IMG/VR virus record: IMGVR_UViG_3300045988_113345
Coordinates: 1 to 38,485 of that record
Source: a virus
DNA length: 38,485 bases
Strand: one strand, 5' to 3'
Positions 56 to 15,645 of this stretch are shown here, one piece after another. The notes beneath the pieces were generated by a model. The model ran no database searches and had not been told where the DNA came from. It saw nothing but the letters and a program-made list of their open reading frames with translations. The stretch's first letter is position 1. Every line of letters begins with the position of its first letter. The position numbers were made by a program, and so were the translations under genes.

Positions 56-175
56 TAGATGCTCTTTTAGTATCTTGACATCATCTTTGGTGCAGGTGTT
101 TTTGCGTTGTAGCTTTAAAAAGTCCCACATCGCCTGAAGTTGCCCCTCGTCAAGCTCTTTAAGATTGTGCTTCAT
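1..175 (-). CDS. 5' part of a 98-aa hypothetical protein whose ORF crosses the circular junction (continues 38430 down to 38309)
   Basis: ATG at 175-173 preceded by GGGGAGCGGG. Translation MKHNLKELDEGQLQAMWDF...QRDTD runs off base 1 with no stop and stays in frame with the 3' part at the window end. Confidence 0.6.
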   Translation of the reverse strand, partial: MKHNLKELDEGQLQAMWDFLKLQRKNTCTKDDVKILKEHLDIIRQAMVQKTAGQRDTD

Positions 176-497
176 TTTCCCGCTCCCCTTCTGTCACCAA
201 CCGCATTGCATCCTCCGCACTCCTGCAAATTCCAGCGATTGCACCGCTTTTTTGCATCATCTCTATAAAATGCAGCTGTGCTTTGGATATCCTGCCTTTT
301 GGCGTTTTTACCTCAATAAAGACTGCTTTGCCGTCTGATTTCCGGACACCAAACAGATCGGAAAAACCTGCCGGAACACCTGACGTAATCCATCGTCCGT
401 CCAACGTGCGACCACTGCACACGTTGACACGAAAAATCACGCAATACTCCGACACCGCTGCCCGAATCTGATTTTGGATGTTATGCTCCTGCGTCAT
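159..497 (-). CDS. VRR-NUC domain nuclease
   Basis: 112 aa. PD-(D/E)xK-type core GFSDLFGV...AVFIEVKTPKGRISKAQLHFIEMM is typical of VRR-NUC. SD GGGAGGA upstream. Lies after the phage helicase, as usual for this family. Confidence 0.85.
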   Translation of the reverse strand: MTQEHNIQNQIRAAVSEYCVIFRVNVCSGRTLDGRWITSGVPAGFSDLFGVRKSDGKAVFIEVKTPKGRISKAQLHFIEMMQKSGAIAGICRSAEDAMRLVTEGERENEAQS

Positions 498-1860
498 GCT
501 TTATCCTCCCAACTGGCAAGCCCATCCGTTTTGCCATATAATACGCCCATCCTGGCTTGTATCCCTTTGCCTTGCCGTATGTTGCAAGGTCTGCAAACGT
601 CTTGCACTGCGACGGCATTGCCGGGATAACTGGCACATCTGTGACTTTTTCCAGCTTGATTTCCGTATGTACTTCTTGCTCCGTTGGCTCTGCTGGCGGT
701 CGCTCTTCTTCCGCCCGGAGTGGCTCGCCACAATTCGGGCAGTTTTTGACCAGCTTGCCGTTTTTGTCACGTTTGGGAAAGCTATAATAACAGTACGCAC
801 ATGTCTCAATCTGAAATCCTTTGTCGTCTTTTTTGCGTCCATCCAGTGACCACTCTCTATCTGCATCGGGCATACCAAACCGTTTGACATTGCCGACATG
901 ATCGAGAATCACTGCTCGTTTGTCCGGCTGATACCGCATGCATCGCATTGACTGCTGGATGTAGAGCGTTAAAGATTGTGTCGGGCGGAGTAGGATTGCA
1001 CAACCACAATCCGGAACATCAAACCCCTCCGAAATCAAATCAACGTTGCAAAGAATCTGGATTTTGCCGCTCCGAAAGTCTGCGATGATTGCATCTCGCT
1101 CTCGCTTTGGCGTTTTTGCATCCAGGTGCTGTGCAGGGATACCAGCGTCACAAAACATCTTTGCCATCATCTGTGAATATCGGATGGATACGCAATAGCA
1201 GACGGCTTTTTTCCCTTTTGCATAGGTCTGATAGTGTGCGATGACGTCCCCAAAAATATATTTGTTGGACATCATCATCTGTTCCGCCTCTGCCATGTCG
1301 TACTCGCCACGCTTTGTGTGCAAGTCCGCCGTATCCAGTATTTTTGGTGCATAGTAGTCATACGGTGCAAGACAATTGTTTTGAATCAGCCATTTTGCTG
1401 TCACGCCGACAATCAAATCATCGTTGACATCTCGCAAGCCAGACCCATCCAGCCGGATTGGCGTTGCCGTCACGCCCACCCGATACGCTGCCGGAAATGC
1501 GTCATATATTTTGCGATAGGTTGCCGCCTTACTGTGGTGGTTTTCGTCCGTAATAATCAGCGTCGGATAGGTGAGCTTCTGTAACCGTCTGGACGCTGTC
1601 TGCACCATCATGACGTTACACAAATCCATCTCCACGCCCCACCACCGAAAGGTGTTGCGGATTTGGTCGCACAACTCTTTTCGATGCACCAAAAACAGCA
1701 CATTTCCGCCATTTTCCGTGGTACGTTTCGCAATCTCTGCCACAATCACCGATTTACCACCGCCACACGGCAGCACGATGCACGGGGCTTTGTGTCCGGC
1801 TCGCCATGATTGGCTCAATCGGTTGACAAGGTCGATTTGATAGGGTCGCAACTCTCCCAT
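481..1860 (-). CDS. SF2 DEAD/DEAH-box (DExH) helicase with C-terminal zinc ribbon
   Basis: 459 aa. RPYQ, Walker A LPCGGGKS, motif II DENHH, motif III TATP, motif VI-like QQSMRCMR. C-terminal CAYC...CPNCG ribbon. SD GAGGAGG. Confidence 0.85.
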   Translation of the reverse strand: MGELRPYQIDLVNRLSQSWRAGHKAPCIVLPCGGGKSVIVAEIAKRTTENGGNVLFLVHRKELCDQIRNTFRWWGVEMDLCNVMMVQTASRRLQKLTYPTLIITDENHHSKAATYRKIYDAFPAAYRVGVTATPIRLDGSGLRDVNDDLIVGVTAKWLIQNNCLAPYDYYAPKILDTADLHTKRGEYDMAEAEQMMMSNKYIFGDVIAHYQTYAKGKKAVCYCVSIRYSQMMAKMFCDAGIPAQHLDAKTPKRERDAIIADFRSGKIQILCNVDLISEGFDVPDCGCAILLRPTQSLTLYIQQSMRCMRYQPDKRAVILDHVGNVKRFGMPDADREWSLDGRKKDDKGFQIETCAYCYYSFPKRDKNGKLVKNCPNCGEPLRAEEERPPAEPTEQEVHTEIKLEKVTDVPVIPAMPSQCKTFADLATYGKAKGYKPGWAYYMAKRMGLPVGRIKHDAGA

Positions 1861-2195
1861 TGGTGCTCCTCCTCTCTGATTGCCAGCCCACTCAGCTGAT
1901 TTGCAAGCTGTTTGCAGGTCGGACAGCCGTTTTTGCTGTAATATGCTCCACTTTTGCGGATGCTATCCAGCATCTGCCGCTCCTGCATTCCGATTTTTTG
2001 AAGCAACTCAAAGTCCCAATACTGCCGCAAAACCTGCTTTTTTTCCTGTTTTGCTTGCTCTGCAGACAATTTCCGAAACGCATACAAGGCGTATAGCGTC
2101 CGCATCGTCAAAAAGTAATAAGTTTCCGGCAGTTGCAACCCCTCTGGCAGCGGCTGCAACTCGTACGCCATCTTATCTAAATCCTCCAGTGTCAC
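1815..2195 (-). CDS. Hypothetical early protein
   Basis: 126-aa ORF with GTG start and AAGGAGG 7-8 nt upstream. Tightly packed between the primase-helicase and the helicase. No recognisable motif. Confidence 0.55.
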   Translation of the reverse strand: MTLEDLDKMAYELQPLPEGLQLPETYYFLTMRTLYALYAFRKLSAEQAKQEKKQVLRQYWDFELLQKIGMQERQMLDSIRKSGAYYSKNGCPTCKQLANQLSGLAIREEEHQWESCDPIKSTLSTD

Positions 2196-2207
2196 GCAAT
2201 CGCCTCC

Positions 2208-4019
2208 TTAAAACGGTAATTTTGTAACCTCTTTTTTAGCCGTATCCAGATTAAACGGGAATTGACAAATACCTTTATCTCCAACCTGATACAATCGCTT
2301 GGATTTACGGCTATGTCGCAGCTGGATGCGGTCGTCCTCTTGCAATAAAATACCCGTTGCACGGTTTTTTTTCACCGCAAGCAGCGTCCGTGTAATTTTT
2401 TCGCCGTCGTCTTTGGTGGTGGTATCTCTATCCAACATGATAACGGTATCTGACAGGTTGCCGATGTTGCCAGAGCCAGATATCTCGTCAACGTCTAACT
2501 CCTTAGATTTGGTTTTTTTGGGGTGGACAACCAGTAAAATGACAATTTGCAGCTTGCTTGCCAGCAGTTTCAGTTTTTTTACAAATTTGCTCTGCTCTAT
2601 GTACATGTCCGTCCCCTCGGCAATTGCCGTCATGAGGTTATCCACCAGCACAAACCGCACGTCATACGCTCTGGCAGCCGCTTCGATTTCCGGAATGATG
2701 TCCATGCTGCCTTTTTCCGCCAATGCAAGGTTGTCCACGATAAACAGGCGGTGGCGATACCAGTCCACAAGCTGTTGCTCCTGTTCCGTGTCGAGGTAAA
2801 ACCCGGCAGAATCGGTATAAACACGTTCTTTGATTGCCTTTTCGCCGGCAATTTGAAAATCCATCCAGCGTTTGACCTCGTAATCTGCCAACTCGCCAGA
2901 ATAAACCAGCACGTTCCAGTCCTGCCAGAGGGCAGCGACTGCAAACATACTGGCAAGTGTGCTCTTTCCCGTGCCGCATTTGCCAGTCAGGGCAATCAGC
3001 TGCCCCTCGTAAAATCCGCCAATGGTCTGGTCAAGCTTTGGCAGCATGGTTTTAAAGTGTGGTACGTCGTTGAGAGCAACGCCTTGCACGTTTGCCATGT
3101 CCTTGATGGTCGGCGGCTGGAACACCTCTGCTTGCTCCACCGCACGGTGTAATGCTTGCTCGCCGTAAGCCTGCAGGATGTCGTTTGCGTCTTTTTCCAG
3201 CAGATAATCTCCCGGACGGACGGAACGCACCTTGCACTTTGGAAATAACTCCCGAATCTCTTTTACAAGCGTTATGCTGCCCCGCTCGTGGTCACCAAAT
3301 ACCACGATGGTGTCAAACTGCTCCACAAAGTCCCTGCAGTGCTCAACCCAAGTAAACCCTCTTGCCCCAGTCGGCACGCTGACAGCGTTGGAAATCCCCG
3401 CACTGGCAAGGGATAAGCTGTCAATCTGCCCCTCTGTGATAACCAGCGTTTTGTTTTTGGTCGGGTCGCAGTGATCCATCCCGAATAAAATCGGTCTGCA
3501 TCCGCTCTCGCACCACTCTTTTGACTTGTGCTTTGTCTTGTCGTAGTCTATCAGGCGATACTTGACAAACTCCAACTTGTTGTAGCGGTTGCCGCTCGTG
3601 TCTGTGACCGGGCGGTAAAACGGAAAAATCAGCTGGTTGGAATCGTCTTTTGTGGTCGTGATGCCATAAGCCCGTGTGACCTCTTTCCTGATACCTCTGC
3701 GAAACAAGTATTGCTCTGCTGGTGTACTGGTAATCAACCGCACCTGCGGAAGGCTCTTAAACGTTCCTGTATCGTCCGCTTGCAGCTGGAAGTCAAAGTC
3801 CCTTGCCAACTCTACAAAATGCCCCTGACGGCCGCAGGACGCCCGTGGGCAGCGATATGCTCCGGACTCCATGTTGATACTAAACGACCAGCGGTCACCA
3901 CGGCTGGAGTGGCAGTAGGGGCACTCTTTAAACTGTAACTCATTGCCGTGTACTCTGGTTTCTATGCCTTGCCGCTCGGCAAAGGCTAGCAGGTCGGATT
4001 GTTGTAATTGATACCGCAT
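2208..4019 (-). CDS. Bifunctional primase-helicase (Zn finger + Toprim + DnaB/RecA-type ATPase)
   Basis: 603 aa from ATG 4019 (SD GAGGGAG). N-terminal CPYCH...CPRASCG, Toprim-like ITEGQIDSLSL / FGDHE, Walker A GKCGTGKST, Walker B-like FVLVDNL. Confidence 0.85.
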   Translation of the reverse strand: MRYQLQQSDLLAFAERQGIETRVHGNELQFKECPYCHSSRGDRWSFSINMESGAYRCPRASCGRQGHFVELARDFDFQLQADDTGTFKSLPQVRLITSTPAEQYLFRRGIRKEVTRAYGITTTKDDSNQLIFPFYRPVTDTSGNRYNKLEFVKYRLIDYDKTKHKSKEWCESGCRPILFGMDHCDPTKNKTLVITEGQIDSLSLASAGISNAVSVPTGARGFTWVEHCRDFVEQFDTIVVFGDHERGSITLVKEIRELFPKCKVRSVRPGDYLLEKDANDILQAYGEQALHRAVEQAEVFQPPTIKDMANVQGVALNDVPHFKTMLPKLDQTIGGFYEGQLIALTGKCGTGKSTLASMFAVAALWQDWNVLVYSGELADYEVKRWMDFQIAGEKAIKERVYTDSAGFYLDTEQEQQLVDWYRHRLFIVDNLALAEKGSMDIIPEIEAAARAYDVRFVLVDNLMTAIAEGTDMYIEQSKFVKKLKLLASKLQIVILLVVHPKKTKSKELDVDEISGSGNIGNLSDTVIMLDRDTTTKDDGEKITRTLLAVKKNRATGILLQEDDRIQLRHSRKSKRLYQVGDKGICQFPFNLDTAKKEVTKLPF

Positions 4020-4034
4020 CGTTCTCACTCCCTC

Positions 4035-4544
4035 TTATACTAAATCAAAATCGACCTCATCCCACGGTACAACATCTCCCTCTTTTGAGATAGCCGGTGG
4101 TGCTGCCCCATCGGGGGCAGTGCCGTCCGGCGGCTTATTTGTTACTGGTACTGGTACTGTTACAGTACCAGTAACAGTAGCAGTATCAGTAACAGTTATT
4201 TTTGTTATCGTTTGTTTTGGTTTGTTATCACTTGTTATAACACCGATAACATTGTTATCATTTGTTATCGTTTGCTTTGGGTTACCCCATCTGCTTTTCA
4301 TGCCTTTTTTGCCAGCTTCTGACCGCTTTTTCTTGATTGCTTCCCACTTCTCGTTGCAACTATCAATCTGCGAAGCAAAGACGCTGAACAGCACCTGCAA
4401 CACCAAGTCGTCAGATTCTAAACGTTCTCCGGTATCTGCATACCGGAGAATCGCCTTGAATAGGGCACCACACTGTGCATCGGATAACATGTCAATCTCT
4501 TTTTTGCGGTCGGTAAACAGAACGAATGATTTTTTGGTTGCCAT
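4035..4544 (-). CDS. DUF6291-like phage replication-module protein containing a DNA repeat tract
   Basis: 169 aa, SD GAGGTGA. N-terminus FVLFTDRKKEIDMLSDAQCGALFKAILRYADTGE resembles DUF6291-type proteins. The middle part (KQTIT..., TVTGTVTVPVPVT) is encoded by the 4141-4280 repeats. Confidence 0.6.
   Translation of the reverse strand: MATKKSFVLFTDRKKEIDMLSDAQCGALFKAILRYADTGERLESDDLVLQVLFSVFASQIDSCNEKWEAIKKKRSEAGKKGMKSRWGNPKQTITNDNNVIGVITSDNKPKQTITKITVTDTATVTGTVTVPVPVTNKPPDGTAPDGAAPPAISKEGDVVPWDEVDFDLV
4141..4280. repeat. Origin-like repeat cluster: 25-nt perfect palindrome plus TTGTTATC direct and inverted repeats
   Basis: Palindrome TACTGGTACTGT-T-ACAGTACCAGTA at 4149-4173. (T/A)TTGTTATC at 4201, 4221, 4251 and 4261, a variant at 4231, and an inverted GATAAC at 4245. 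The 20-mer TTTGTTATCGTTTG(T/C)TTTGG occurs at 4201 and 4261. Confidence 0.8.
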
Positions 4545-4559
4545 CCGCTTATCACCTCA

Positions 4560-5228
4560 TTAAAACGGTACGTCACCCGTCATCGGAATCTCCTCAAAGT
4601 CGCTCAGGTCGCCAATGTTGGGAACGGCTGCTGGTTGCTGCTGCTGTGCTGCTGCGGCAAAGATACCACCGGATGCAAAGACGTTATTTCCTGTTTGCTT
4701 TGGTTTTCTCGGCTCTGGAATCTCAAAATCACCCGTACGAATCTTTGCGGGGTCGCAGAGAAATGCAGCCTCGGTAAAGTGATTGCCGTTATACTCTGCC
4801 TCACGGAACAGCACACCCACGGTACAACCTTTAAAAATGTCTGGGTCATATCCTGCCTCAATATTTGGCTCTGGTTTGCCGTTTGCCCGTGCGATGGTGT
4901 TGACCTGACCTTTATAGATTGCAACGCTCTGCATATACTTTTCATTGTCGCCCGTCATGACCGGCAGAAAGATTTTGTAGATGCCCTTCCATTTCTGCCC
5001 GTATTGACTGCCGGCATCGTCCAAATACCGCCGCTGGAAGTGTCCGGCATACTCACCCTCAGACACGTCAATCTGTAGCTTGATGTATAAGCTGCCGCCA
5101 CTGGTCTTGTCCACCTTAACATTAAGGATTTTGCAGACATAACCGCCTGCCGGAAGCTTGCCAAACTTGCTGCCAAATGTAGACTCCTGCACACCATTTG
5201 CACCTTGGATACCTGCTAATATTGCCAT
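4560..5228 (-). CDS. DUF669-like single-stranded-DNA-binding protein candidate
   Basis: 222 aa from ATG 5228 (GGAGG upstream). LPAGGYVCKILNVKVDKTSGG...IDVSEGEYAGH resembles DUF669. The acidic C-terminal tip DLSDFEEIPMTGDVPF resembles the SSB D-x-P-F tail. Confidence 0.65.
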   Translation of the reverse strand: MAILAGIQGANGVQESTFGSKFGKLPAGGYVCKILNVKVDKTSGGSLYIKLQIDVSEGEYAGHFQRRYLDDAGSQYGQKWKGIYKIFLPVMTGDNEKYMQSVAIYKGQVNTIARANGKPEPNIEAGYDPDIFKGCTVGVLFREAEYNGNHFTEAAFLCDPAKIRTGDFEIPEPRKPKQTGNNVFASGGIFAAAAQQQQPAAVPNIGDLSDFEEIPMTGDVPF

Positions 5229-5282
5229 AATAAATACCTCCATAATTTTTTATTTGATTTAGTTATGATACATACAGCCAAT

Positions 5283-5906
5283 TTACTCCAGCTGATAGTA
5301 CTCTCGGATAGCCTTGTCCACGGCTTTTAGGTCGTTGTCAATCTCCTCCGGGAACAGCTCCATAGGAGATTTTGCCGTGCTGTTGCCGTTGCTTTGCGTT
5401 TGGAAATAGTGCCGCCCCGCTGCATCTGCCTGACACAGCAGAACGATGGAAAACAGCCCCTCGACCGTCAACTTTTCATCTAGCATTTTCCCGATGGTCT
5501 TTGCTTTCAGCCGCCGATTTCCGGCAGCGTCATATGAGGTTTCTGTGTGATGCAAAAAGTACACAATGCAGTTGTCTGGCGTTTTAAACTGAATGAATCG
5601 GATGAGACTGTAAAAATTCAATGCCATGTTTGTAAACTTTTCGTAGCCTTTCTCGCTTGCATGGTTAAAAAACTCAAATGCAAGCAGATACTGACTGTCA
5701 TCAATCGCATACTTTGTCTTGTTGTGCTGTGCCAGTGTCCGGACAATCAGCGGATAATCTGCCGCATTGGCACATGGCAGCTTTTTGCGAAACGGGAGCG
5801 GCTTGCTGGCAACATTAAAAATACCAATCTCGCCCGGCTCAAAATTCCGGAGGCTGGTAGACTTGCCACTTCCAGATTCTCCGATGATTAAAACAGGGAT
5901 ACCCAT
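5283..5906 (-). CDS. Sak4-like AAA/RecA-fold ATPase (recombination/annealing module)
   Basis: 207 aa. Walker A IIGESGSGKST very close to the N-terminus. Sits between Gp157 and DUF669, as in Sak4 modules. SD AAAGGTGG 9 nt before ATG 5906. Confidence 0.7.
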   Translation of the reverse strand: MGIPVLIIGESGSGKSTSLRNFEPGEIGIFNVASKPLPFRKKLPCANAADYPLIVRTLAQHNKTKYAIDDSQYLLAFEFFNHASEKGYEKFTNMALNFYSLIRFIQFKTPDNCIVYFLHHTETSYDAAGNRRLKAKTIGKMLDEKLTVEGLFSIVLLCQADAAGRHYFQTQSNGNSTAKSPMELFPEEIDNDLKAVDKAIREYYQLE

Positions 5907-5921
5907 AGTCATCACCACCTT

Positions 5922-6467
5922 TCATCGGATTTGCAAGGATTGCGTCTGCACCAGCTGGCAGCCATCCAGCTGACCGCCGTCCTGCAAATATGCCTTGATT
6001 TTGGTCTTTTGCAGCTCTGGCAGCTTGTACCGCAACAGGTCGTCATGGTCAGATGCTTGCAACTGTTTTACAAGTGTTGCCTCGTCTGCAATCTGTAGTG
6101 ATTGCGGATTGTTGCGGATGGAGATGCAAGCACGCACACCATCGACTTTTTTCAGCCGCATTTGCGTCATGCTATCCTGCAGATAGTCTTTCAGGCGTGC
6201 AGCTCGATGTTCACACGCTTTCCGGCGGTCAGACAATTTCCGCTCTTCCGTTCGCATTGCATCTGCTCTTGCAAGTAAGTCCTTGATGTACAAAGCAACA
6301 TTCTCGGCCTTGTCGTTAAACTCCGTTTCCAGAGCGTCCAGTGTGTCAAACCACGCTGTTTCTGCGTCCTCTGCGGACGCCCCTGCAGCTTCTGCTTGTT
6401 CCGTCAGGTCGTCCAGCTGGTCAAACAGTACGGCAAAATCGCCGGAAATCTCGTATAATTTACTCAT
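5922..6467 (-). CDS. Siphovirus Gp157 family protein
   Basis: 181 aa. N-terminus SKLYEISGDFAVLFDQLDD and an acidic coiled-coil body are typical of Sipho_Gp157. First gene of the recombination module. SD AAGGAG. Confidence 0.8.
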   Translation of the reverse strand: MSKLYEISGDFAVLFDQLDDLTEQAEAAGASAEDAETAWFDTLDALETEFNDKAENVALYIKDLLARADAMRTEERKLSDRRKACEHRAARLKDYLQDSMTQMRLKKVDGVRACISIRNNPQSLQIADEATLVKQLQASDHDDLLRYKLPELQKTKIKAYLQDGGQLDGCQLVQTQSLQIR

Positions 6468-6496
6468 TGACAAACACTCCTTTTTTGTGTTATATT
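6467..6496 (+). promoter_or_regulatory. Plus-strand sigma-A-type promoter (antisense to the early operon)
   Basis: TTGACA (6467-6472), 18-nt spacer, TGtTATATT (extended -10, 6488-6496). There is no plus-strand ORF downstream. Confidence 0.4.
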
Positions 6497-8586: not shown

Positions 8587-8613
8587 AAAAGATAAATAAG
8601 GGAGGTGATAAAA

Positions 8614-9211: not shown

Positions 9212-9229
9212 ATTCACATTTGTGTGAAT
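9212..9229. promoter_or_regulatory. 18-bp palindrome ATTCACA-TTTG-TGTGAAT (operator or weak minus-strand terminator)
   Basis: Perfect 7-bp arms between the divergent promoters at 9123-9151 and 9247-9275. On the minus strand it is followed after 3 nt by T7. Confidence 0.5.
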
Positions 9230-9246
9230 TGTATACGCTACTTTTA

Positions 9247-9275
9247 TTGACAATCACACGAACGTATGATATAAT
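9247..9275 (+). promoter_or_regulatory. Consensus promoter of the first XRE regulator
   Basis: TTGACA (9247-9252), 17-nt spacer ending in TGA, TATAAT (9270-9275). Confidence 0.75.
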
Positions 9276-9298
9276 AATGGTGAAAAGAGGTGATAAAA

Positions 9299-9757
9299 TT
9301 GGAAACAAAAGATGTTTTGAAAGCTTTAAGAAAGTCGAATGGCTTTACAACTATGCAGGATTTTTGCAAAGCATCTGGCATTAGTTTTAGTACTTATCAA
9401 AACTATGAAACTGGTAAAAGAATACCAACTGCGGATATGTTAATCAAACTCGCCGACTTTTACGGTGTAACAACGGACTACTTACTCGGTAGAGAGCCAG
9501 CCCCAGACCCGTTTGCAGACCTGAATCTCAACAAGGAATCAGAAACGAATGTCATTGATAAGTATATGAGCTTGCCGCCAAATATCCGTGCTTGTCTGAT
9601 GGATGTCTTGCTCCAGCTTGCTGACGCAGCAAAGCAGCGGCAAAACAACGCACAGCCGGAAGACGATACGCAGTGCAGTAAATTGTCCATCTCAACGACG
9701 CTTGGAACGATTGAGAACGAAATTGAGAAGATGGCTATGGCAAAAGGCGGAGCATAA
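9299..9757 (+). CDS. XRE-family HTH transcriptional regulator (repressor candidate)
   Basis: 152 aa from TTG 9299 (GTG 9290 is also possible). SD AGAGGTGA. HTH FCKASGISFSTYQNYETGKRIPTADMLIKLADFYGVTTDYLLGR, plus a ~80-aa C-terminal domain of unknown type. Confidence 0.8.
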   Translation: METKDVLKALRKSNGFTTMQDFCKASGISFSTYQNYETGKRIPTADMLIKLADFYGVTTDYLLGREPAPDPFADLNLNKESETNVIDKYMSLPPNIRACLMDVLLQLADAAKQRQNNAQPEDDTQCSKLSISTTLGTIENEIEKMAMAKGGA

Positions 9758-9826
9758 TGCTCACAAAAGCCTTGAAAAAATGAGTGTGTCCGGACAGCAC
9801 TAAAAAAATCGCCGGAGCAAAAAACG

Positions 9827-9858
9827 GAGCCGTAAAAAAATCTTACGGCTCTTTTTTT
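9827..9858 (+). terminator. Intrinsic terminator
   Basis: GAGCCGTAA / TTACGGCTC 9-bp stem, 7-nt loop, T7 tail. Confidence 0.8.
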
Positions 9859-9922
9859 GTTTGTAAAATTATACAAAACGTATCTTATTTTTTGTGCATC
9901 TATACAAATTGCGTAAAAGCGA

Positions 9923-9951
9923 TTGACATTATACGCAAACTGTGTTATTAT
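9923..9951 (+). promoter_or_regulatory. Promoter of the second XRE regulator
   Basis: TTGACA (9923-9928), 17-nt spacer ending in TGTGT, TATTAT (9946-9951). Confidence 0.65.
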
Positions 9952-9975
9952 AGGATACAGAGAGGAGGTGATATT

Positions 9976-10332
9976 ATGGCATGGTTTAATGCTCTCAAAT
10001 CACTAAGACGTGACACCGGTTACACCGCCATTGAAACAGCAAAAAAGCTGGGGCTGCCGTATACAACTTATGTCAGCTACGAGCAAGGCAAACGGGAACC
10101 AAGCATCAACTGCCTGATTAAACTTGCTAACTACTTTGATGTGCCTCTGGATACATTGCTTGACCGGAACGACGAGGTAAGCGGCGATGACGAAGAAGAA
10201 CCATCATTTTCAGAAATGTATGGTCGACTGTCGGCGGAAAAAAAACGCAAAATTGACAAATCGTTAAAAAGCCTCATGGAAATGTTTGATGGGCTAAAAG
10301 ACGAAGAAGAAGAAGAAGAAGAAGAAAACTAA
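9976..10332 (+). CDS. XRE-family HTH transcriptional regulator with poly-Glu tail
   Basis: 118 aa from ATG 9976 (SD GGAGGTGA). HTH AIETAKKLGLPYTTYVSYEQGKREPSINCLIKLANYFDVPLDTLL. C-terminus DEEEEEEEEN. Confidence 0.8.
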   Translation: MAWFNALKSLRRDTGYTAIETAKKLGLPYTTYVSYEQGKREPSINCLIKLANYFDVPLDTLLDRNDEVSGDDEEEPSFSEMYGRLSAEKKRKIDKSLKSLMEMFDGLKDEEEEEEEEN

Positions 10333-10350
10333 GTAAAACAACAACCAAAA

Positions 10351-10396
10351 ACTGCCTGCGAGAACAAAAAAAACGTTCTTGCAGGCAGTTTTTTTG
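10351..10396 (+). terminator. Intrinsic terminator
   Basis: ACTGCCTGCGAGAAC / GTTCTTGCAGGCAGT 15-bp stem (1 mismatch), A-rich loop, T7 tail. Confidence 0.85.
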
Positions 10397-10401
10397 TAAA
10401 A

Positions 10402-10421
10402 AGCCCCCCAGAGGTCGAAAC
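10402..10421. terminator. Left half of a bidirectional terminator split by the IS element
   Basis: AGCCCCCCAGAGG + TCGAAAC. Its complement CCTCTGAGGGGCT + T-run lies at 11757-11776, on the far side of the IS. Confidence 0.7.
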
Positions 10422-10501
10422 TGAACTGACCCCAAAAAGTTAGACAAAGATTCAAAAGAAAATTTATGCAAAGCGACTAAGAGGAATCTTGGTCGCTTTT
10501 G

Positions 10502-11338
10502 TTATGCAGCTTCCTGTCTGAATTCTACAGGAGATAGGCCATTCAGCTTAAGTTTGATGCGTTTGTTGTTGTACCATTCTATGTATTCATGAAGTTCTTC
10601 AATGAAATGCTCGACAGAATGAAATTCCTGCAAATAGAGAAGCTCTGTTTTCAGCAAGCCGAAGAAGTTCTCGGCACAGGCATTGTCAAGACAATTCCCC
10701 TTTCGGGACATACTCTGCCGGATGCCTTTCTCTTTCAGCATTTTCAGATAGTGCTTGTGTTGATACTGCCAGCCTTGGTCTGAATGAAGAATCAGATTTG
10801 TGTTGTCCGGTATTTTTGAAAATGCTTTCTCAAGCATATCCGTTACCTGATTCAAATTCGGATGACGGCTTAAATTGTATGAAATCACTTCGCCATTATA
10901 TAGATCAATGATTGGTGACAGATACAGCTTTATTCCAAACAAAGCAAATTCAGTAACATCCGTTACCCACTTCTGATTTGGCTGATCTGCTTTGAAATTC
11001 CGTTTCAGAAGATTTGGTGCGATTCTGCCGACATTACCCTTGTATGAGTGATACTTGTGCATACGAACACGGCAAAATATGCCCATTTTACGCATCAGTT
11101 TCTGTACAGTCTTGTGATTGATCACAAACTTCTTCTTCAATTCTTTTGTAATTCTCCGATATCCGTAACGCCCTTTGCTTTCCTCATAAATGCGGCGTAT
11201 TTCAGTTTTGATTTCAGCATATCGATCTGGCTTTGGATGATCAAATTGCTTGCTGTAATAGTAATAGGTACTGCGGGGAATATCGGCAATCTCAATGAGC
11301 AGTCCTATTTTATGTTCATGCCTCAGTTCCCATATCAC
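10502..11338 (-). CDS. IS3-family transposase OrfB (DDE/rve catalytic part), expressed as an OrfAB fusion
   Basis: 278-aa ORF in the -1 frame relative to orfA. That frame is open back to the slippery site at 11392. Typical IS3 features: IGLLIEI..., WVTDVTEF, LHSDQGWQY, NACAENFF, LNGLSPVEFR. Confidence 0.9.
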   Translation of the reverse strand: MIWELRHEHKIGLLIEIADIPRSTYYYYSKQFDHPKPDRYAEIKTEIRRIYEESKGRYGYRRITKELKKKFVINHKTVQKLMRKMGIFCRVRMHKYHSYKGNVGRIAPNLLKRNFKADQPNQKWVTDVTEFALFGIKLYLSPIIDLYNGEVISYNLSRHPNLNQVTDMLEKAFSKIPDNTNLILHSDQGWQYQHKHYLKMLKEKGIRQSMSRKGNCLDNACAENFFGLLKTELLYLQEFHSVEHFIEELHEYIEWYNNKRIKLKLNGLSPVEFRQEAA

Positions 11339-11676
11339 TTGTGCTTTTTCTCTTGCCGTACCCGCTCGGCAACCAAGGCATTCAATTTTTTTAAGTATGC
11401 ATTCTCCGCACGAAGACGCTGTACTTCTGCAATCAGATCTTCTTCTTTCTTAATTTTCGGAGGTCGCCCTGTGGATTTCCTTCCTCTGCGTTCTATGTAA
11501 AGTCCCTCCGCTCCTTCTTCAAGATAGATTCGTTCCCATGCTGCTACTCTATCATGATCGCGTATGTCAAATTGACGTGCAGTTTCACGATAGCTTAACT
11601 TTTCTCTATGCATTGTTTCCACTACTTTGATTTTGAATTCCGGTGTGTATCTTTTGTTCGGCTGTCCTTTTGGCAT
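11335..11676 (-). CDS. IS3-family transposase OrfA (HTH + leucine zipper)
   Basis: 113 aa. PNKRYTPEFKIKVVE...LSYRETARQFDI... and a C-terminal heptad region AEVQRLRAENAYLKKLNALV. Confidence 0.9.
   Translation of the reverse strand: MPKGQPNKRYTPEFKIKVVETMHREKLSYRETARQFDIRDHDRVAAWERIYLEEGAEGLYIERRGRKSTGRPPKIKKEEDLIAEVQRLRAENAYLKKLNALVAERVRQEKKHK
11386..11392 (-). other. Programmed -1 ribosomal frameshift heptamer A AAA AAA
   Basis: orfA reads TTA AAA AAA TTG. Sliding back 1 nt gives AAA AAA ATT GAA..., which runs without a stop into the orfB frame. Confidence 0.75.
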
Positions 11677-11754
11677 AAAAATGCCCCCTTTCGTTAGTTT
11701 TTTATTGGTATATTTCTATTATACCACATTGTCTAACAAAAGGGGAGCATTTCA

Positions 11755-11776
11755 AACCTCTGAGGGGCTATTTTTT
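11755..11776. terminator. Right half of the IS-disrupted bidirectional terminator
   Basis: AAC (target duplication) + CTCTGAGGGGCT + A + TTTTTT. The rep stop codon is at 11775-11777. Confidence 0.7.
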
Positions 11777-12833
11777 AATATAGGTTGTATGCTGCAGGCT
11801 GGAAAGCATCGCGTTCGAGCATTTTTAAAAAATAAGCAAATCTGTTTTTTATAGGTTTGTTTTCCGCTGCAACATTAAGTGCAGCATATTTTTCACGGAG
11901 ATAAAATTGCTTACCATACAACTCGTTTTTTGTTAGCTTGTCTTTTGGTATGTCGATACGGACAAGTACACGGGCGATTTGCTCCATCTCAGCTTTGTTA
12001 AACTCATAATTGCACCCCTCGGCAAGCGTAGCAAGCCTCTCTGAGCCATAAGTGATTGTCCAGTCAATTCCATCTCGGTCTTCATAAAGCGGCTCTATGG
12101 GGCTGCCAGTGACGTTCTGGGGCGTTTTGAGTATAAATTGTATGCCGGATACTTTGCGACCACGCCGCAGGGCTACATAATCAAAATCAATGTCGGTTTT
12201 TTGGGATAACTCTTTTTGACACTTTTTTAATACCATGGTACTAAAACGCTTGTACTCACTGTATGTGTCCGCCGTGCAGCAGAGCATTTTTTTTAGTTCG
12301 CCAAGCGGTATCGTCCACGCCCCTCGAAAGCGGTTACTCTCTAAATACAAATACAAGATGTAACTGTATCTGGATGTTAAATTGACTACATTTTTAAGAC
12401 GGTATCTCAAATAGCCGATACTCTCAATATTAAAGATGTACTCCATCGCCTCTGGCGAGCATGCAAGTTTGATTGTCCAAAGCCCATCGTCCCCCTGCGT
12501 ACACTCAGCACACGAAAAAAGGGCTATTTTAGTAAATTTGTTTGGTTTGTCAGGGTCTTGGATAGTAACAACCTTAAAAAGGTTGTCAATCCGGTCAGAT
12601 AAATCCTTGTTTTTTATTTGCGTAACGCCCAGCAGCGACTCCAACTCACCCTTATCAAACGTCACACACCGCTCCTCTAGGTTGTGACTATTGATTTTTG
12701 ACAAGTACGCATCCAGTATTTTAAACTCTGCAAGCGTCATTTTAGTTTCGGATAGTGATTGCAGGGGGTTTGACTTTTGTACTAAAAAATTGCAATTGCC
12801 AGAAATTTGTGGTAGTGTTGTTCTTTTTGGCAT
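11775..12833 (-). CDS. Rep_3-type (RepB-like) theta-replication initiator protein
   Basis: 352 aa from ATG 12833 (SD GAGGTGA). Winged-helix pattern MTLAEFKILDAYLSKI..., LTSRYSYILYLYLESNRFRG..IPLGELKKML, YSEYKRFSTMVLKKCQKEL...DIDFDYVALRRGRKVSGIQFILK. Iterons lie immediately upstream. Confidence 0.85.
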   Translation of the reverse strand: MPKRTTLPQISGNCNFLVQKSNPLQSLSETKMTLAEFKILDAYLSKINSHNLEERCVTFDKGELESLLGVTQIKNKDLSDRIDNLFKVVTIQDPDKPNKFTKIALFSCAECTQGDDGLWTIKLACSPEAMEYIFNIESIGYLRYRLKNVVNLTSRYSYILYLYLESNRFRGAWTIPLGELKKMLCCTADTYSEYKRFSTMVLKKCQKELSQKTDIDFDYVALRRGRKVSGIQFILKTPQNVTGSPIEPLYEDRDGIDWTITYGSERLATLAEGCNYEFNKAEMEQIARVLVRIDIPKDKLTKNELYGKQFYLREKYAALNVAAENKPIKNRFAYFLKMLERDAFQPAAYNLY

Positions 12834-12851
12834 GATTATCACCTCATGCTT

Positions 12852-12880
12852 ATTTTAACATAAAGACGTGGTTTTGTCAA
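12852..12880 (-). promoter_or_regulatory. rep promoter abutting the iterons
   Basis: Minus strand TTGACA (12880-12875), 17 nt ending in TGT, TAAAAT (12857-12852). The -35 overlaps the degenerate fifth iteron. Confidence 0.7.
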
Positions 12881-12987
12881 TAGCAATACGCCCTTTGATG
12901 GAAAAGAATATGTCCCTTCACGGAAAAGGATACATCCCTTCACGGAAAAGGATACGTCCCTTCACGGAAAAGGATACGTCCCTAAAC
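12879..12987. repeat. Iterons: four tandem 22-bp direct repeats plus one degenerate copy
   Basis: GGAAAAG(A/G)ATA(T/C)(G/A)TCCCTTCAC at 12900, 12922, 12944 and 12966, contiguous with no spacers. A degenerate copy ...CAATACGCCCTTTGATG lies at 12879-12899. Confidence 0.9.
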
Positions 12988-13026
12988 ATCAAACCGCCCC
13001 GAAAATCCGGACTTTTTTACACCCCG

Positions 13027-13086
13027 TAATCAAGTAGATAATCAAGTTATAATCAAGTTATAATCAAGATGATTGATTGATTGATG
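13027..13086. repeat. Helically phased AT-rich repeats (AATCAAG x4, then GATT x3)
   Basis: AATCAAG starts at 13028, 13040, 13051 and 13062 (11-12 bp spacing), followed by GATTGATTGATTGATG. Confidence 0.8.
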
Positions 13087-13111
13087 TGCACAAAAAACAA
13101 AAAAATTGCTT

Positions 13112-13168
13112 TTAAAATAAAAAAAGAAGCCGCTTCCTGAGATGATCAGTTTCAGGGAACGGCTTTTT
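13112..13168. terminator. Bidirectional intrinsic terminator (end of the late/lysis transcript)
   Basis: AGCCGCTTCCTGA / TCAGGGAACGGCT stem with small bulges. A-run upstream (13112-13125) and T5 downstream, so it works on both strands. Confidence 0.8.
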
Positions 13169-13226
13169 CCACAATTAGTAGGTTGGAAAAAATAAAAAAT
13201 TTTCATCCGGTACATCCGGATTGAAT
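13112..13226 (-). ncRNA. Candidate ~100-nt RNA between a consensus promoter and the terminator, upstream of the plasmid-type origin
   Basis: Transcription from the 13233-13262 promoter would start near 13226, pass a small hairpin (AUCCGG-AUGUA-CCGGAU + U-rich tract) and end at the 13128-13163 hairpin. No ORF in this stretch. Confidence 0.35.
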
Positions 13227-13232
13227 GAATTT

Positions 13233-13262
13233 ATTATATCATGTTTTTTTACAACTTGTCAA
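13233..13262 (-). promoter_or_regulatory. Consensus promoter pointing toward the origin region
   Basis: Minus strand TTGACA (13262-13257), 18 nt ending in TGA, TATAAT (13238-13233). Both hexamers are perfect. Confidence 0.7.
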
Positions 13263-13295
13263 TAAAATCACTTGTCGAATTTTGTCGATGAAAAA

Positions 13296-14498
13296 TTATA
13301 GCTTTTCGTCTATGTTTGCCACGTGTTTCAGAATTTGTTGCAGCGTGGATTCTTCGCTATCTGGTTCAGGCGTTGGCGTTGGCTCTGGTTCAGTTGGTTG
13401 CGTTGCTTTTGTGAACCCGTTCAGACCAGCATTTTTGATGATTGTAGGGTAATCTATGTAGCATTCATCTAAATCAACGTCCCCGTTAATACCGCTGATC
13501 GTTCCGCATCCCTTTTGCCAGATGCCATAATTGCCGGAATAACCGCATTCGCTGCTATAATCCGCACACCAAACTGTATACCGATTTCGCACCGATTCAG
13601 TGACATAATTTTCAAGGTAAAAGGTAGAGCAATACAAACCGGCATAATAGCCAGCCTGCTCCAATGTGCTGCAAAACGCTTCAACCATTTCGCTACAAAC
13701 CTGTTTTCCAAGAGCAAATTGCTTCTTTTCTTCCAAATCTAAATAAATTGGATATGCAAACTGCTTACCCTGTAGAACTTGCAAGCAGACACTTGCTTCC
13801 TGCCTTGCCTCTGCTGCACTCGTGGCATAACTATACCAAAACGCACCGCAGGGGATGCCGCTTTTCTGACAACCAGCATAATTCTCTTCAAAATAATCAT
13901 CAACCTGATTCTTCAAGATCTTTCCGAATCCGGCACGAATCAGAGCAAATGAAACTTTTCCAGACGCTTTTACTTTTACCCAATCAATTTTCTGCTGGCA
14001 GTATGATACATCAATCCCATAGAGGATATTTTTTGCAGATGTCAAACCAAAATACTTGTAAAAATCCTCTGTAACTGTGCCGTTTCCCTTTGTTTCATCT
14101 CCCAACCAGCGGTATCCTGTCCGCACATCCAGATGTGTGTACTGATAGGCTGCTGTAATGTTGGCAATACCGCCAAAGCCTAAATCCTGAGCCTTGCAGC
14201 ATACCGTTTTGCTGCTGATCGGCTGCCCGTCCTGCCCGTAACAGCAGACATCCGCAGCAGTGCCTTTTGTGTGCTGACCGCTGCTTGTACCGCCTACAGC
14301 CTTGTCATGCTCTGGGCAGCGATAACCGCTTGTCACAATGATTTTGCTACAGTTCAGGGCGGTGTAAAGCCGCTCTAACTTGTCTATTAGACCGCTGTCT
14401 ATTAAAATATCGTGCGATTTACCGCACTGGCATTTAAACTCTTGCACGTTAAAATGTGCTGACAGTTGGGTTTTGTCGTCAAATTTATACGTTGACAT
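13296..14498 (-). CDS. Two-domain endolysin: M15-type peptidase + GH25 muramidase
   Basis: 400 aa. N-terminal SGYRCPEHDKAVGGTSSGQHTKGTAADV (Zn D-Ala-D-Ala peptidase H..G.A.D motif). Central YGIDVSYCQQKIDWVKVKASGKVSFALIRAG (GH25). Pro/Glu/Thr linker near the C-terminus. Confidence 0.9.
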   Translation of the reverse strand: MSTYKFDDKTQLSAHFNVQEFKCQCGKSHDILIDSGLIDKLERLYTALNCSKIIVTSGYRCPEHDKAVGGTSSGQHTKGTAADVCCYGQDGQPISSKTVCCKAQDLGFGGIANITAAYQYTHLDVRTGYRWLGDETKGNGTVTEDFYKYFGLTSAKNILYGIDVSYCQQKIDWVKVKASGKVSFALIRAGFGKILKNQVDDYFEENYAGCQKSGIPCGAFWYSYATSAAEARQEASVCLQVLQGKQFAYPIYLDLEEKKQFALGKQVCSEMVEAFCSTLEQAGYYAGLYCSTFYLENYVTESVRNRYTVWCADYSSECGYSGNYGIWQKGCGTISGINGDVDLDECYIDYPTIIKNAGLNGFTKATQPTEPEPTPTPEPDSEESTLQQILKHVANIDEKL

Positions 14499-14612
14499 AG
14501 TTGATACACTCCTTTTCTTGTTTGAAATTGGTTAAAATACACATATTGCGTATATTCGTATTGTACATTCCTACAAATTGAGTAAAAGAACAACTAAAAT
14601 GATAAAAAAGCA

Positions 14613-14641
14613 TTGACAAATGTACCAAAATGGTATATACT
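14613..14641 (+). promoter_or_regulatory. Promoter of the opposite-strand cassette
   Basis: TTGACA (14613-14618), 17 nt, TATACT (14636-14641). The spacer contains the palindrome TACCA-AAA-TGGTA (14623-14635). Confidence 0.7.
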
Positions 14642-14721
14642 ATAATTACAGTTAAGGACAAGACAAAGTCCAAACAACATAGACCGCCCCACAGAGGGCA
14701 GAAAGAACGAGGGTATTTATT

Positions 14722-14922
14722 ATGGCTAACACAGTGAACTACAACGGAGCAACCTACAACTGGGACATCGTAAGCAGCTATTTTGATTTTGTCGTATCGG
14801 ACACAATCGACTGGAACGGTGATGAAACCAACGAAGAAGTACTTGCAAAGTACATTGCAGCAGACCCAGAGTTTGCAGACCTGTTTGAGTACGACTTTGT
14901 ACCGCTTGACACAATAGCGTAA
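14722..14922 (+). CDS. Very acidic 66-aa protein (anti-defence / DNA-mimic candidate)
   Basis: ATG 14722. By my count 9 Asp + 5 Glu against 1 Lys and no Arg. No family recognised. Confidence 0.6.
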   Translation: MANTVNYNGATYNWDIVSSYFDFVVSDTIDWNGDETNEEVLAKYIAADPEFADLFEYDFVPLDTIA

Positions 14923-14960
14923 ACAAAAACCTGCTGACCCATCGGCGTGACGGGGAGAAA

Positions 14961-15179
14961 GTGAGAATCAATATGAAAAACCCGAAAAACTACTTTGAAA
15001 AGAATGGATTTATCTACGGCGATAGCTACAAGTACAGCTTTGGCGAATGGGAACACAGAGTGCAGAAGTTTGATTCCTACGAGGACGCTGAAAAGTGGTT
15101 GTATACAGAGGAATACGATTTTCGCACACGGGAACTGATTTCCAAGACCGAAGCAAGAAAGTACGGTTGCAACGAATAA
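14961..15179 (+). CDS. Hypothetical small protein (68-72 aa)
   Basis: ORF with GTG 14961 or ATG 14973 as start, GGGGAGAAAG upstream. Rich in aromatic and acidic residues (YEDAEKWLYTEEYDF). Confidence 0.55.
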   Translation: MRINMKNPKNYFEKNGFIYGDSYKYSFGEWEHRVQKFDSYEDAEKWLYTEEYDFRTRELISKTEARKYGCNE

Positions 15180-15263
15180 TCATTGTAATAAAAATCGGCA
15201 CACTGAAACGGGGAGAAATCCCCGTAAAGTGTGCATAATCTGTTATAAAAAGGAAGAATATTG

Positions 15264-15590
15264 ATGAAAAAAATTGAATTTGATATGTTTATACGCCTTT
15301 ACGGTGAAGCTAAAAGCTACAATAATCTTGATATGTACATCATGGAACGAGGCTGGCAGGAATGGATGAACGACTTAGAACCTGGCACTGTTGCGGAAGT
15401 CCTAAAAAACATCTACAGCATTGCAAAAGACGGATTTCCGGAGCTTTTAAACCATTATGAAACACTCCGGAAAGTGTCTAATAGATTTGGAATACCATAC
15501 AGCACCTTGCAGCGTTGGAAATCCGGAATAACAGATGTTCCGGAATACATATTGCTCATGATGGCATATATTACAATTATTAACCAATAA
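15264..15590 (+). CDS. 108-aa protein with C-terminal HTH-like segment (Aca-like regulator candidate)
   Basis: ATG 15264, SD AAGGAAG 7 nt upstream. C-terminal LRKVSNRFGIPYSTLQRWKSGITDVPEYILLMM resembles the IP.rT...W..G...P..Y HTH seen in Firmicutes mobile elements. Confidence 0.6.
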   Translation: MKKIEFDMFIRLYGEAKSYNNLDMYIMERGWQEWMNDLEPGTVAEVLKNIYSIAKDGFPELLNHYETLRKVSNRFGIPYSTLQRWKSGITDVPEYILLMMAYITIINQ

Positions 15591-15610
15591 TTTTGTATAT
15601 TTGCACAAAC

Positions 15611-15645
15611 CGCTTGGCAGTTTAACCGCTGCCAGGCGTTTTTTT
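15611..15645 (+). terminator. Intrinsic terminator of the plus-strand cassette
   Basis: CGCTTGGCAG / CTGCCAGGCG 10-bp stem (one G-U), 8-nt loop, T7. The T-run abuts the holin stop codon. Confidence 0.8.

Follow-up and report, generated by a model that had tools for sequence, protein, structure and literature searches.

A gut siphovirus genome with a Rep_3-iteron replicon and no detectable integrase: a probable phage-plasmid

We analyzed the IMG/VR virus record IMGVR_UViG_3300045988_113345 over its whole length (38,485 bp, 45.5% G+C; hereafter "the window"), focusing on a conserved cassette of 1.35 kb (approximately 11754-13107) that comprises an iteron-containing replication origin and the gene of a plasmid-type initiator protein, Rep, and that is referred to below as the ori-rep cassette. 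Judging from sequence comparisons, we estimate at about 0.7 the probability that the window represents, as a complete circle, a temperate siphovirus whose host is a gut bacterium of the Ruminococcus/Oscillospiraceae type, and that this phage, which has no integration function, is kept as a plasmid prophage by an iteron-controlled theta replicon descended from a small plasmid. A phage-plasmid had already been proposed in the original prediction, which was made from the letters of the sequence, and the proposal is supported in silico by the Rep_3 nature of the initiator, the absence of recombinases other than an IS3 transposase, the conservation of the cassette and the comparison with the integrase slot of sister phages. 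The assembly is regarded as circular because the start of the window is repeated at its end as an exact 55-bp direct repeat.

The Pfam scan included 54 open reading frames (ORFs) covering the whole window, with no intergenic gap longer than approximately 480 bp. Zero DNA matches were obtained with megablast of 25 kb of the window against deposited phages, and zero with blastn of the cassette against the PLSDB plasmids, so that protein-level searches were needed. For the genome-wide Pfam and PHROG scans and those of the sister phages, ORFs were joined by X-linkers and the matches were mapped back via their coordinates; the whole-sequence E-values of these scans are the values of the ORF concatenates.

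The Rep_3 initiator gene and its iteron origin

The features of the ori-rep cassette are as follows:

11775..12833, minus strand: rep gene, 352-aa Rep_3 initiator (Pfam and PHROG matches)
12875-12880 and 12852-12857, minus strand: rep promoter, -35 element TTGACA and -10 element TAAAAT with a 17-nt spacer (promoter scan)
12863-12870, in the spacer of the minus-strand promoter: inverted partial iteron AAAGACGT (sequence and relatives)
12886..12983, minus strand: array of iterons with a unit length of 22 bp, reading GGGACGTATCCTTTTCCGTGAA in the rep orientation (Tandem Repeats Finder, TRF)
12984..13026, no strand assigned: G+C-richer spacer of approximately 43 bp between the iterons and the AT-rich block, on the rep strand ...ACGGGGTGTAAAAAAGTCCGGATTTTCGGGGCGGTTTGATGTTTA
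13027..13107, no strand assigned: AT-rich block, probable DNA-unwinding element (TRF, repeats, conservation)

On the evidence of profile searches, the ORF at 11775-12833 belongs to the Rep_3 family (PF01051/PF21205), with both winged-helix (WH) domains and the origin anatomy of the family present. The Rep3_N domain (WH1) covers approximately residues 18-164 with an E-value of 1.7e-19 (71.1 bits, cut-off 22.4), and the Rep3_C domain (WH2) approximately residues 179-233 with 5.7e-15 (55.8 bits, cut-off 21.1); both exceed the Pfam cut-offs, in agreement with the family assignment of the original prediction. Moreover, PHROG 4402, described as "replication initiation protein", matches Rep at 4.6e-26. 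A search of the PDB with the single Rep sequence was uninformative (best E-value only 0.69) and a profile of 24 homologues was required, which matched the R6K pi protein (2nra, 1.1e-5) and the F RepE protein (1rep, 3.9e-4) over WH2. The C-terminal extension of approximately 115 residues, searched as the C-terminal 131 residues, matched no Pfam family.

The ATG start codon of rep is located at 12831-12833 and its ribosome-binding site GAGGTG at 12840-12845. The TTGACA-17-TAAAAT promoter of the original prediction was also found by the promoter scan (12880..12852, minus strand), where it showed 11 of 12 consensus matches and a TG extension. Further upstream, TRF detected the iteron array with a period of 22 bp, 4.5 copies, 88% matches and a score of 147. 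The array consists of copies at 12961-12982, 12939-12960 and 12917-12938, of a degenerate fourth copy with 4 mismatches at 12895-12916, and of a half iteron at 12886-12894 that is located 5 nt upstream of the -35 element. When GGGACGTATCCTTTTCCGTGAA was searched with up to 3 mismatches, three occurrences were found in the window, all of them in the array, and none in 100 shuffles. The 22-bp tandem array had thus been recognized correctly, its proposed register (12900-12987) being off by a few bases, and the "fifth copy" that was thought to overlap the -35 element is essentially the half iteron.

The spacer at 12984-13026 is near-identical in all phage relatives, and small plasmids have a spacer of similar length. 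In the adjacent AT-rich block, with an AT content of 72-85%, the sequence TAATCAAG is found four times at spacings of 12, 11 and 11 bp (13027-13068). These are its only copies in the entire window, and the four phased repeats described previously could be confirmed. They are followed by four TGAT units (13070-13085) and by an A/T tract that extends to 13107. The block is near-identical in Rep-bearing relatives, and the homology to the relatives begins at 13107. The region first proposed as the replicon (11775-13262) does contain it, with an upper end approximately 150 bp too generous, as the conserved cassette ends at about 13107 and the segment 13108-13262 travels with the endolysin gene, not with the replicon. 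The only near-consensus DnaA box, TTTTCCACA at 13165, was considered as a part of the origin and rejected, being located outside the cassette and absent from the Rep-bearing relatives.

Relatives of the cassette and the integrase slot of sister phages

A tblastn search with Rep yielded 1,021 plasmid records versus 3 phage records, the latter being unannotated faecal "phage" contigs. The best plasmid matches were the circles HG796793, HG796324 and HG796312 (3.6-4.5 kb; 40-49% identity over the full length). These circles were obtained from rat caecum, in a plasmid preparation that had been treated with exonuclease (PMC3913684). The other annotated genes of HG796793 (pRGF00037) are only a small ORF and a 413-aa ORF, and the plasmid is typed in PLSDB as MOBV-mobilisable. 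Additionally, Rep relatives of 50-63% identity were found on contigs of 2-7 kb in a large protein collection, and relatives of 47-62% identity on small contigs of Ruminococcus, Oscillospiraceae and Lachnospiraceae metagenome-assembled genomes (MAGs) in a GTDB scan; no Rep copy of more than 80% identity was found in the GTDB representative genomes. A Rep protein of 53-54% identity serves as the replicon of conjugative plasmids of gut bacteria of 40-46 kb (loci L111-L115), which encode a type IV secretion system, a relaxase, a single-stranded DNA-binding protein (SSB), ParA and ParB.

The small Rep_3 plasmids of gut Clostridia resemble the window in the Rep protein, with 40-63% identity from end to end, the C-terminal extension included, and in the layout of the origin. 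They measure 2.6-15 kb and carry a relaxase and little else, with rep as the sole annotated replication gene, and neither these plasmids nor the conjugative ones of 40-46 kb have virion genes. The plasmid origins consist, in order, of four to five 11-12-bp repeats CTTGATTA, a spacer of approximately 40 bp, 22-bp iterons, a half iteron, TTGACA and rep, and their iterons read AAAGG(T/A)CATAGACTTTT.. in 3.5-5.5 copies. Since the plasmid origins share their layout and motifs with the window cassette, the latter is regarded as a bona fide plasmid replicon; it also matches the replicon of the conjugative plasmids of 40-46 kb. Its iterons, which are of the type named A (GGGACGTATCC...), are unlike the plasmid iteron type.

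Among phages, approximately 69 Rep protein clusters are 80-98% identical to the window Rep, many of them on contigs of 34-46 kb; the cassette is retained in dozens of phage contigs of approximately 36-45 kb, and the longest Rep-bearing contig measures 64.8 kb (L010, of which the phage part was inspected). Two Rep copies listed at NCBI (P0029, P0042) are from metagenome contigs, one of them labelled Hadza/Nepal, and neither is from an isolate. In every locus fetched, rep is located between the endolysin gene, sometimes accompanied by a Dam methylase gene, and a cI-like helix-turn-helix (HTH) gene, on whose side a small zinc-ribbon membrane protein is sometimes also encoded. The Dam-type (MethyltransfD12) methylase was observed at approximately 4466-6206 in L008-L010, between the endolysin gene and the ori-rep cassette, and at approximately 15687-16425 in L109-L110, between the endolysin gene and an HTH gene. 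Contigs of the L015 type (38,122-38,506 bp), which come from different samples, are cut at differing points of the genome, which indicates circular or circularly permuted molecules.

The genes around rep are mosaic. The early module consists of primase-helicase/Sak4 genes, of RecT/exonuclease/ERCC4/SSB genes with a DnaD-like loader, or of ERF/ERCC4/SSB genes, from which it follows that a phage-type replication and recombination module accompanies Rep_3 in every variant examined (window, L014 and L090 types); tail genes vary likewise. As estimated from the sequences, the phage rep gene itself is under purifying selection: all ten copies examined are intact ORFs of 352 codons, and their pairwise ratios of nonsynonymous to synonymous substitutions (dN/dS) are 0.04-0.26 (approximately 0.1), with dS up to approximately 1. 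The iteron period of 22 bp is constant in all relatives, and the sequence and the copy number (2 to more than 5) vary; it should be mentioned that some relative scaffolds have N gaps inside the array. Type A iterons, GGGAC(G/A)TA..CTTTTCCGT.A, are found in the window and in L042-L044, including its two closest relatives (93% identity), and type B iterons, AGG(T/A)CATAGACTTTTCC.., in the plasmids and the remaining phage relatives. Across the relatives, a switch of iteron type is accompanied by a switch of the inverted partial iteron between the -35 and -10 elements. Such co-variation of iterons and Rep is the pattern expected of a functional, co-evolving pair of initiator and iterons.

In the window, the Pfam scan found no Phage_integrase, Resolvase or Recombinase domain in the 54 ORFs, the intergenic gaps being too short to hide such a gene, and the same method detected these domains in sister phages. 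The scan thus agrees with the original prediction that an integrase is missing and that the transposase of an IS3-family insertion sequence (IS) is the sole recombinase. Neither ParA/CbiA nor ParB domains, nor any toxin domain, were found in these ORFs, as was also anticipated. The Rfam and tRNA scans of the window returned nothing, and therefore neither a tRNA-type att site nor a known copy-control RNA is present.

The sequences on both sides of the cassette contain the following features:

9290-9757 and 9784-10332, plus strand: two XRE/cI-like HTH_3 repressor genes, divergent from the early operon (Pfam HTH_3, 5e-27)
10403..10421, minus strand: distal half of the rep terminator hairpin with its T-run, cut off from the proximal half by the IS
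10422..11754, minus strand: IS3-family element, 1333 bp (Pfam HTH_28/HTH_Tnp_1, rve/rve_2/HTH_21)
11755..11774, minus strand: proximal half of the rep terminator hairpin, directly past the rep stop codon (empty-site reconstruction and IS-less allele)
13124-13168, both strands: late-operon terminator hairpin with T-runs on both strands, separating the cassette from the endolysin gene (inverted repeat)
13296..14498, minus strand: endolysin gene (Peptidase_M15_3 and GH25; Pfam), which ends the series of late genes and adjoins the cassette on its upstream side

The window endolysin was used to search IMG/VR, and 60 loci were obtained, 6 of which have Rep_3 downstream. The slot behind the endolysin gene was compared in those of the examined loci that had enough flanking DNA, and most of the others carry there either a tyrosine integrase (L032, L035, L036, L038, L053) or a serine recombinase of 498 aa followed by ImmA/HTH (L049, L051, L058, L064, L071). 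The serine-integrase phages share 84-95% DNA identity with the window over the tail-fibre, holin, endolysin and early regions. In L064, the homology with the window extends up to 13235, is interrupted by 3 kb of integrase-ImmA-HTH sequence and is found again from 9104. On account of this break, the exchanged unit is defined as 9105-13234 of the window, which includes the origin and rep, both repressor-like genes, and the IS that was inserted later; the two HTH_3 genes travel with ori-rep as a single lysogeny module.

A tail protein of 515 aa, 94% identical to that of the window, is encoded on contigs of 54, 78 and 355 kb, and related clusters are on contigs of up to 403 kb; several of these 54-403 kb loci have integrases and bacterial-type genes after the endolysin gene. 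The Rep-bearing contigs do not exceed 64.8 kb, versus 355-403 kb for the integrase-bearing sisters. A partial tail protein of 99% identity is labelled in one source as belonging to a Ruminococcus sp. MAG.

The IS3 element contains orfA (11335-11676) and orfB (10502-11338), is bounded by terminal inverted repeats and has duplicated 3 bp of its target, AAC. Its insertion site is the loop of the rep terminator; the empty site was reconstructed as GCCCCTCAGAGGTTTCGACCTCTGGGGGGCTTTTT, and an IS-less allele in which window position 11754 is joined straight to 10421 is present in L081. The element is missing from all relatives other than the same phage, and it is a secondary insertion outside the replicon. 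Several assemblies of the same phage break exactly at this element (10422-11754), which suggests that it was multicopy in the sample, e.g. also present in the host. With its own promoter and with terminators on either side, rep is, as far as these predicted signals tell, an independent transcription unit.

Proposed mode of maintenance and alternative explanations

A temperate life cycle is signalled by the cI-like and cro-like genes, by the antirepressor encoded in relatives, and by the IS3 element with its clean target duplication. On the basis of established knowledge of Rep_3 replicons (F, R6K and pPS10; pCI305/pWV02), the prophage state could operate as follows. After infection, the cI-like repressors would silence the early and late operons, and Rep would still be expressed from its own sigma-70-type promoter. 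Rep monomers would bind the four to five 22-bp iterons, melt the adjacent AT-rich 11-bp repeats and recruit the host replisome, and the 38-kb genome would replicate as a plasmid. By binding the half iteron as well as the inverted partial iteron of the promoter, Rep would repress its own synthesis, and handcuffing of iterons would cap the copy number. Upon induction, lytic replication would pass to the early module, which provides the primase-helicase, the SF2 helicase and the SSB-like and Sak4-like proteins, with a candidate origin located in the DUF6291 gene. Inheritance without partition genes might rely on random segregation of multiple copies, as in small plasmids, and this is the weakest link of the mechanism; re-infection, or the killing of cured cells by released phage, might add stability. 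The differing iteron/Rep types among co-circulating relatives probably represent incompatibility groups.

Several points weigh against a plasmid prophage. The lack of a partition system, of a multimer-resolution recombinase and of an addiction module is unusual for a plasmid of 38 kb, and the related conjugative plasmids of 40-46 kb do have ParAB, which the window phage does not. Lactococcal replicons of the same layout are present at only 2-3 copies per cell (PMC4293149), which warns against taking a high copy number for granted. Within the conserved cassette, no consensus DnaA box was found. Moreover, Rep_3 could also serve early lytic replication, and two contigs join the phage to host genes, as described below.

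Among the alternatives, the one that survives best, although we consider it unlikely, is that Rep_3 and the iterons form an origin of the lytic cycle, used for early theta replication or as a back-up initiator, in a phage that is virulent, pseudolysogenic or in a carrier state and forms no stable plasmid lysogens. A phage family of Rep_3-like "replication initiation proteins" in PHROGs would fit this explanation, as would the lack of partition and addiction functions and the co-orientation of the cassette with the late genes, which in the L014 type goes as far as the cassette following directly after the endolysin stop codon with no annotated gene between. However, each variant already has a phage-type replication module in its early operon, whereas rep is located outside that operon, with a promoter of its own, beside the repressors and in the slot that is occupied by the integrase in the sisters. 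The close non-phage relatives of Rep are all plasmid maintenance replicons, and a temperate cycle is favoured by the genes of cI-like, cro-like and antirepressor proteins.

The next alternative, integration without an integrase of its own, with Rep_3 as an accessory, is based on two contigs from different samples and assemblers, L003 (20.7 kb) and L014 (51.3 kb), in which host genes are joined to the phage within the tail-fibre gene. The host side consists of an IS605 tnpB, a GH9-CBM30-dockerin cellulase and a HAD hydrolase gene. In the fibre-like ORF at the join, the first approximately 430 residues are foreign, and the last approximately 350 residues and the DNA downstream are 100% identical to the respective phage variant, with a short zone of decaying similarity between the two parts. 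L014 (51,309 bp) consists of 12.9 kb of host DNA and approximately one phage circle. What comes after the HAD gene differs among other strains, namely a fibre-like gene of 51-68% identity, terminase genes (TerS/TerL), or ordinary chromosomal genes.

Integration could then have taken place by homologous recombination at the HAD-adjacent fibre gene, by a host recombinase or by the IS3 element, and in its favour are the joining of the same host genes to two phage variants at a homologous point of the fibre gene, the complete identity downstream of the join, the composition of L014 (one phage length in addition to its host part of 12.9 kb), and the prophage-like genes at the HAD locus of other strains. 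We nevertheless regard it as quite improbable. The join is inside an ORF and shows a zone of decaying homology, which is typical of a shared receptor-binding domain and not of an att site, and host DNA followed by exactly one circle is also expected when an assembly graph walk enters a circular element. The majority of the Rep-bearing contigs are free circles (36-45 kb), compared with the 355-403 kb of the integrase-bearing sisters, and the IS3 element is present only in the variant of the window itself. One reading that we offer is that the phage and a prophage-like element of the chromosome have the receptor-binding end of the fibre in common. L003 and L014 would then be either graph walks via this shared segment or real Campbell-type integrants formed by homologous recombination, and neither of these would be site-specific integration. 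From the locus of the HAD and fibre genes, the host would be one of the Oscillospiraceae, Ruminococcus-like and cellulosome-bearing, and receptor-binding domains would have been exchanged.

As a separate observation on this locus, the HAD-adjacent fibre-like gene is located at 4220-6568 in L003, 3220-5055 in L014 and 10012-12243 in L063, and further prophage contigs have it as well; its C-terminal part, which is beta-helix-like and presumably receptor-binding, is up to 100% identical to that of the phage tail fibre.

Finally, the cassette could be a passenger without a role in phage biology, either a small plasmid cointegrated in one phage or an assembly chimera, an idea that could draw on the IS3 element adjoining rep and on the lower G+C content (0.39-0.43) at 8-16 kb; it is very improbable and is contradicted by the comparative data, as the same arrangement is found without the IS in dozens of independent assemblies, 10 of 10 rep copies are intact with a dN/dS of approximately 0.1, the iterons co-vary with the Rep type, and no mobilisation gene or other plasmid gene accompanies the cassette.

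A broader and more tentative proposal can be made, to which we give somewhat less than even odds. In one population of mosaic gut Ruminococcus phages, the mode of lysogeny might be an exchangeable cassette in the slot between endolysin and repressor, consisting of a tyrosine integrase, a serine integrase or a Rep_3-iteron replicon. The replicon form would have been captured, without partition genes, from small high-copy plasmids, would have spread worldwide and would have diversified into iteron/Rep specificity types, and these types might act as prophage incompatibility groups which, beside repressor immunity, decide on co-residence.

Comparison with known systems and the rest of the genome

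Conceptually, the phage studied here is nearest to the Cluster A mycobacteriophages (cited in PMC7969092), some members of which have an integration cassette while others have parABS at the same locus and an extrachromosomal prophage that is replicated by phage functions. In both cases, a maintenance cassette replaces the integration cassette; the replacement is parABS in Cluster A and a Rep_3-iteron replicon without partition genes in the phage studied here. P1, a 94-kb enterobacterial myovirus, is a temperate phage kept as a plasmid by an autoregulated iteron-binding initiator, with a separate lytic replicon, and it has ParAB-parS, Cre/lox dimer resolution, an addiction module and the incA control locus. 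The analogy with P1 that was drawn in the original prediction holds for the proposed lifestyle of a temperate phage kept as a plasmid by an autoregulated iteron initiator; a second, lytic replicon may be represented in the window by the primase-helicase module and the repeat arrays at 4143-4274, a candidate lytic origin. The analogy does not extend to ParAB-parS, Cre/lox, the addiction module or incA, which the window lacks, nor to the phage parts, for which the DNA search of deposited phages found no homology to P1.

At the level of the replicon, the F RepE, R6K pi and pPS10 RepA proteins belong to the same two-winged-helix family, and their origins likewise have tandem iterons by an AT-rich region and an operator-like inverted repeat at the promoter. 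The similarity to RepE and pi is remote (1e-5 to 4e-4 over WH2), and the window differs from these systems in the additional C-terminus of approximately 115 residues and in the lack of a DnaA box in the conserved cassette. The origin of the lactococcal theta replicons pCI305/pWV02 (RepB) consists of an AT-rich region, 3.5 iterons of 22 bp and inverted repeats (PMC4293149), and the window shows the same layout of AT-rich region, 22-bp iterons and inverted repeats at the promoter. Their L_lactis_RepB_C domain (PF06430) was not detected in the window Rep when the whole protein and the C-terminal 131 residues were searched with E-values up to 1, and by its C-terminal domain the window replicon would fall outside this family. 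Furthermore, it has no orfX, is carried by a phage and is assigned to a clostridial anaerobe host.

The window combines a full temperate-phage gene set with a plasmid-type initiator and the lack of an integrase, in accordance with the phage-plasmid criteria of Pfeifer et al. 2021 (PMC7969092). A partition system was not obligatory in their screen (PMC7969092). No description of the present lineage was found in the literature searched, and we consider it a newly recognised, widespread gut phage-plasmid, the class of phage-plasmids itself being already known. To our knowledge, nearly all studied phage-plasmids are those of cultured Proteobacteria, Bacillus, Clostridium or Mycobacterium. The lineage described here is an uncultured one, widespread in the human gut and represented in dozens of independent metagenome assemblies, some of them labelled Hadza/Nepal. 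The contrast between integrase and replicon in sister phages should be useful for the study of switching between integrated and episomal lysogeny, and the lineage offers a case for how an element of 38 kb might be inherited without partition genes; both are directly testable questions. It also bears on prophage prediction in metagenomes, where phages without an integrase are usually scored as virulent. Additionally, few genetic tools are currently available for anaerobes of the Ruminococcus type, and the ori-rep cassette, with its 1.35 kb, is a candidate replicon for such tools.

The separate phage-type replication module that had been predicted is present, with primase-helicase, SF2 helicase, Sak4-like and SSB-like genes. 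This replication and recombination module occupies 159..6473 on the minus strand (Pfam, PHROGs, TRF) and contains the following genes:

159-497, minus strand: VRR-NUC
481-1860, minus strand: SF2 helicase
2208-4028, minus strand: Toprim-DnaB primase-helicase
4035-4544, minus strand: DUF6291 protein, with repeat arrays inside
4560-5243, minus strand: SSB-like protein
5283-5918, minus strand: Sak4-like protein
5922-6473, minus strand: Gp157

The origin-like repeats previously placed at 4141-4280 were located by TRF and by inspection of the sequence at 4143-4274, within the DUF6291 gene. They consist of dense arrays of GATAACAA in direct and inverted orientation (approximately 6 copies), followed by ACTG-type hexamer repeats, (T/C)ACTG(T/G)T, just upstream of the primase-helicase gene, and they constitute a candidate phage-type origin inside a coding sequence.

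Virion and packaging genes identified with Pfam encode the terminase large subunit, minor capsid protein 2, a scaffold protein, Gp15, the tape measure protein and a collagen-like tail fibre; the ORF at 32124-33650 is in the portal position and has no Pfam match. The lysis genes are those of a holin and of the M15-GH25 endolysin. The G+C content of the lysogeny and lysis region (8001-16000) is 0.39-0.43, versus 0.45-0.53 in the replication and structural regions, which is consistent with modular exchange.

Some minor observations were made along the genome. The segment 13110-13262 contains, on the minus strand, a promoter with 12 of 12 consensus matches (TTGACA-18-TATAAT with TG), approximately 110 nt of sequence and then the hairpin terminator at 13168-13124; this unit is a small-RNA candidate, with a fold-energy z of -3.6 and without a match in Rfam. 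As the segment is also located after the endolysin gene of the integrase-bearing L038, it is assigned to the lysis module rather than the replicon. In the head module, the ORF at 29329-29832 on the minus strand, between the scaffold and YjcQ genes, encodes a domain resembling Tad2 (Thoeris anti-defence 2; Pfam, 1e-21), and weak Tad2-like matches were also found in the sister phages L103 and L109. At its C-terminus, minor capsid protein 2 (30448-32124) is extended by approximately 185 residues that have no Pfam match and are encoded in a stretch of 34% G+C (30192-31000, minus strand); its gene is followed next by an ORF of 81 aa (30192-30437). By their position alone, the extension and this small ORF recall the toxin/immunity pairs of polymorphic toxins of the MuF type.

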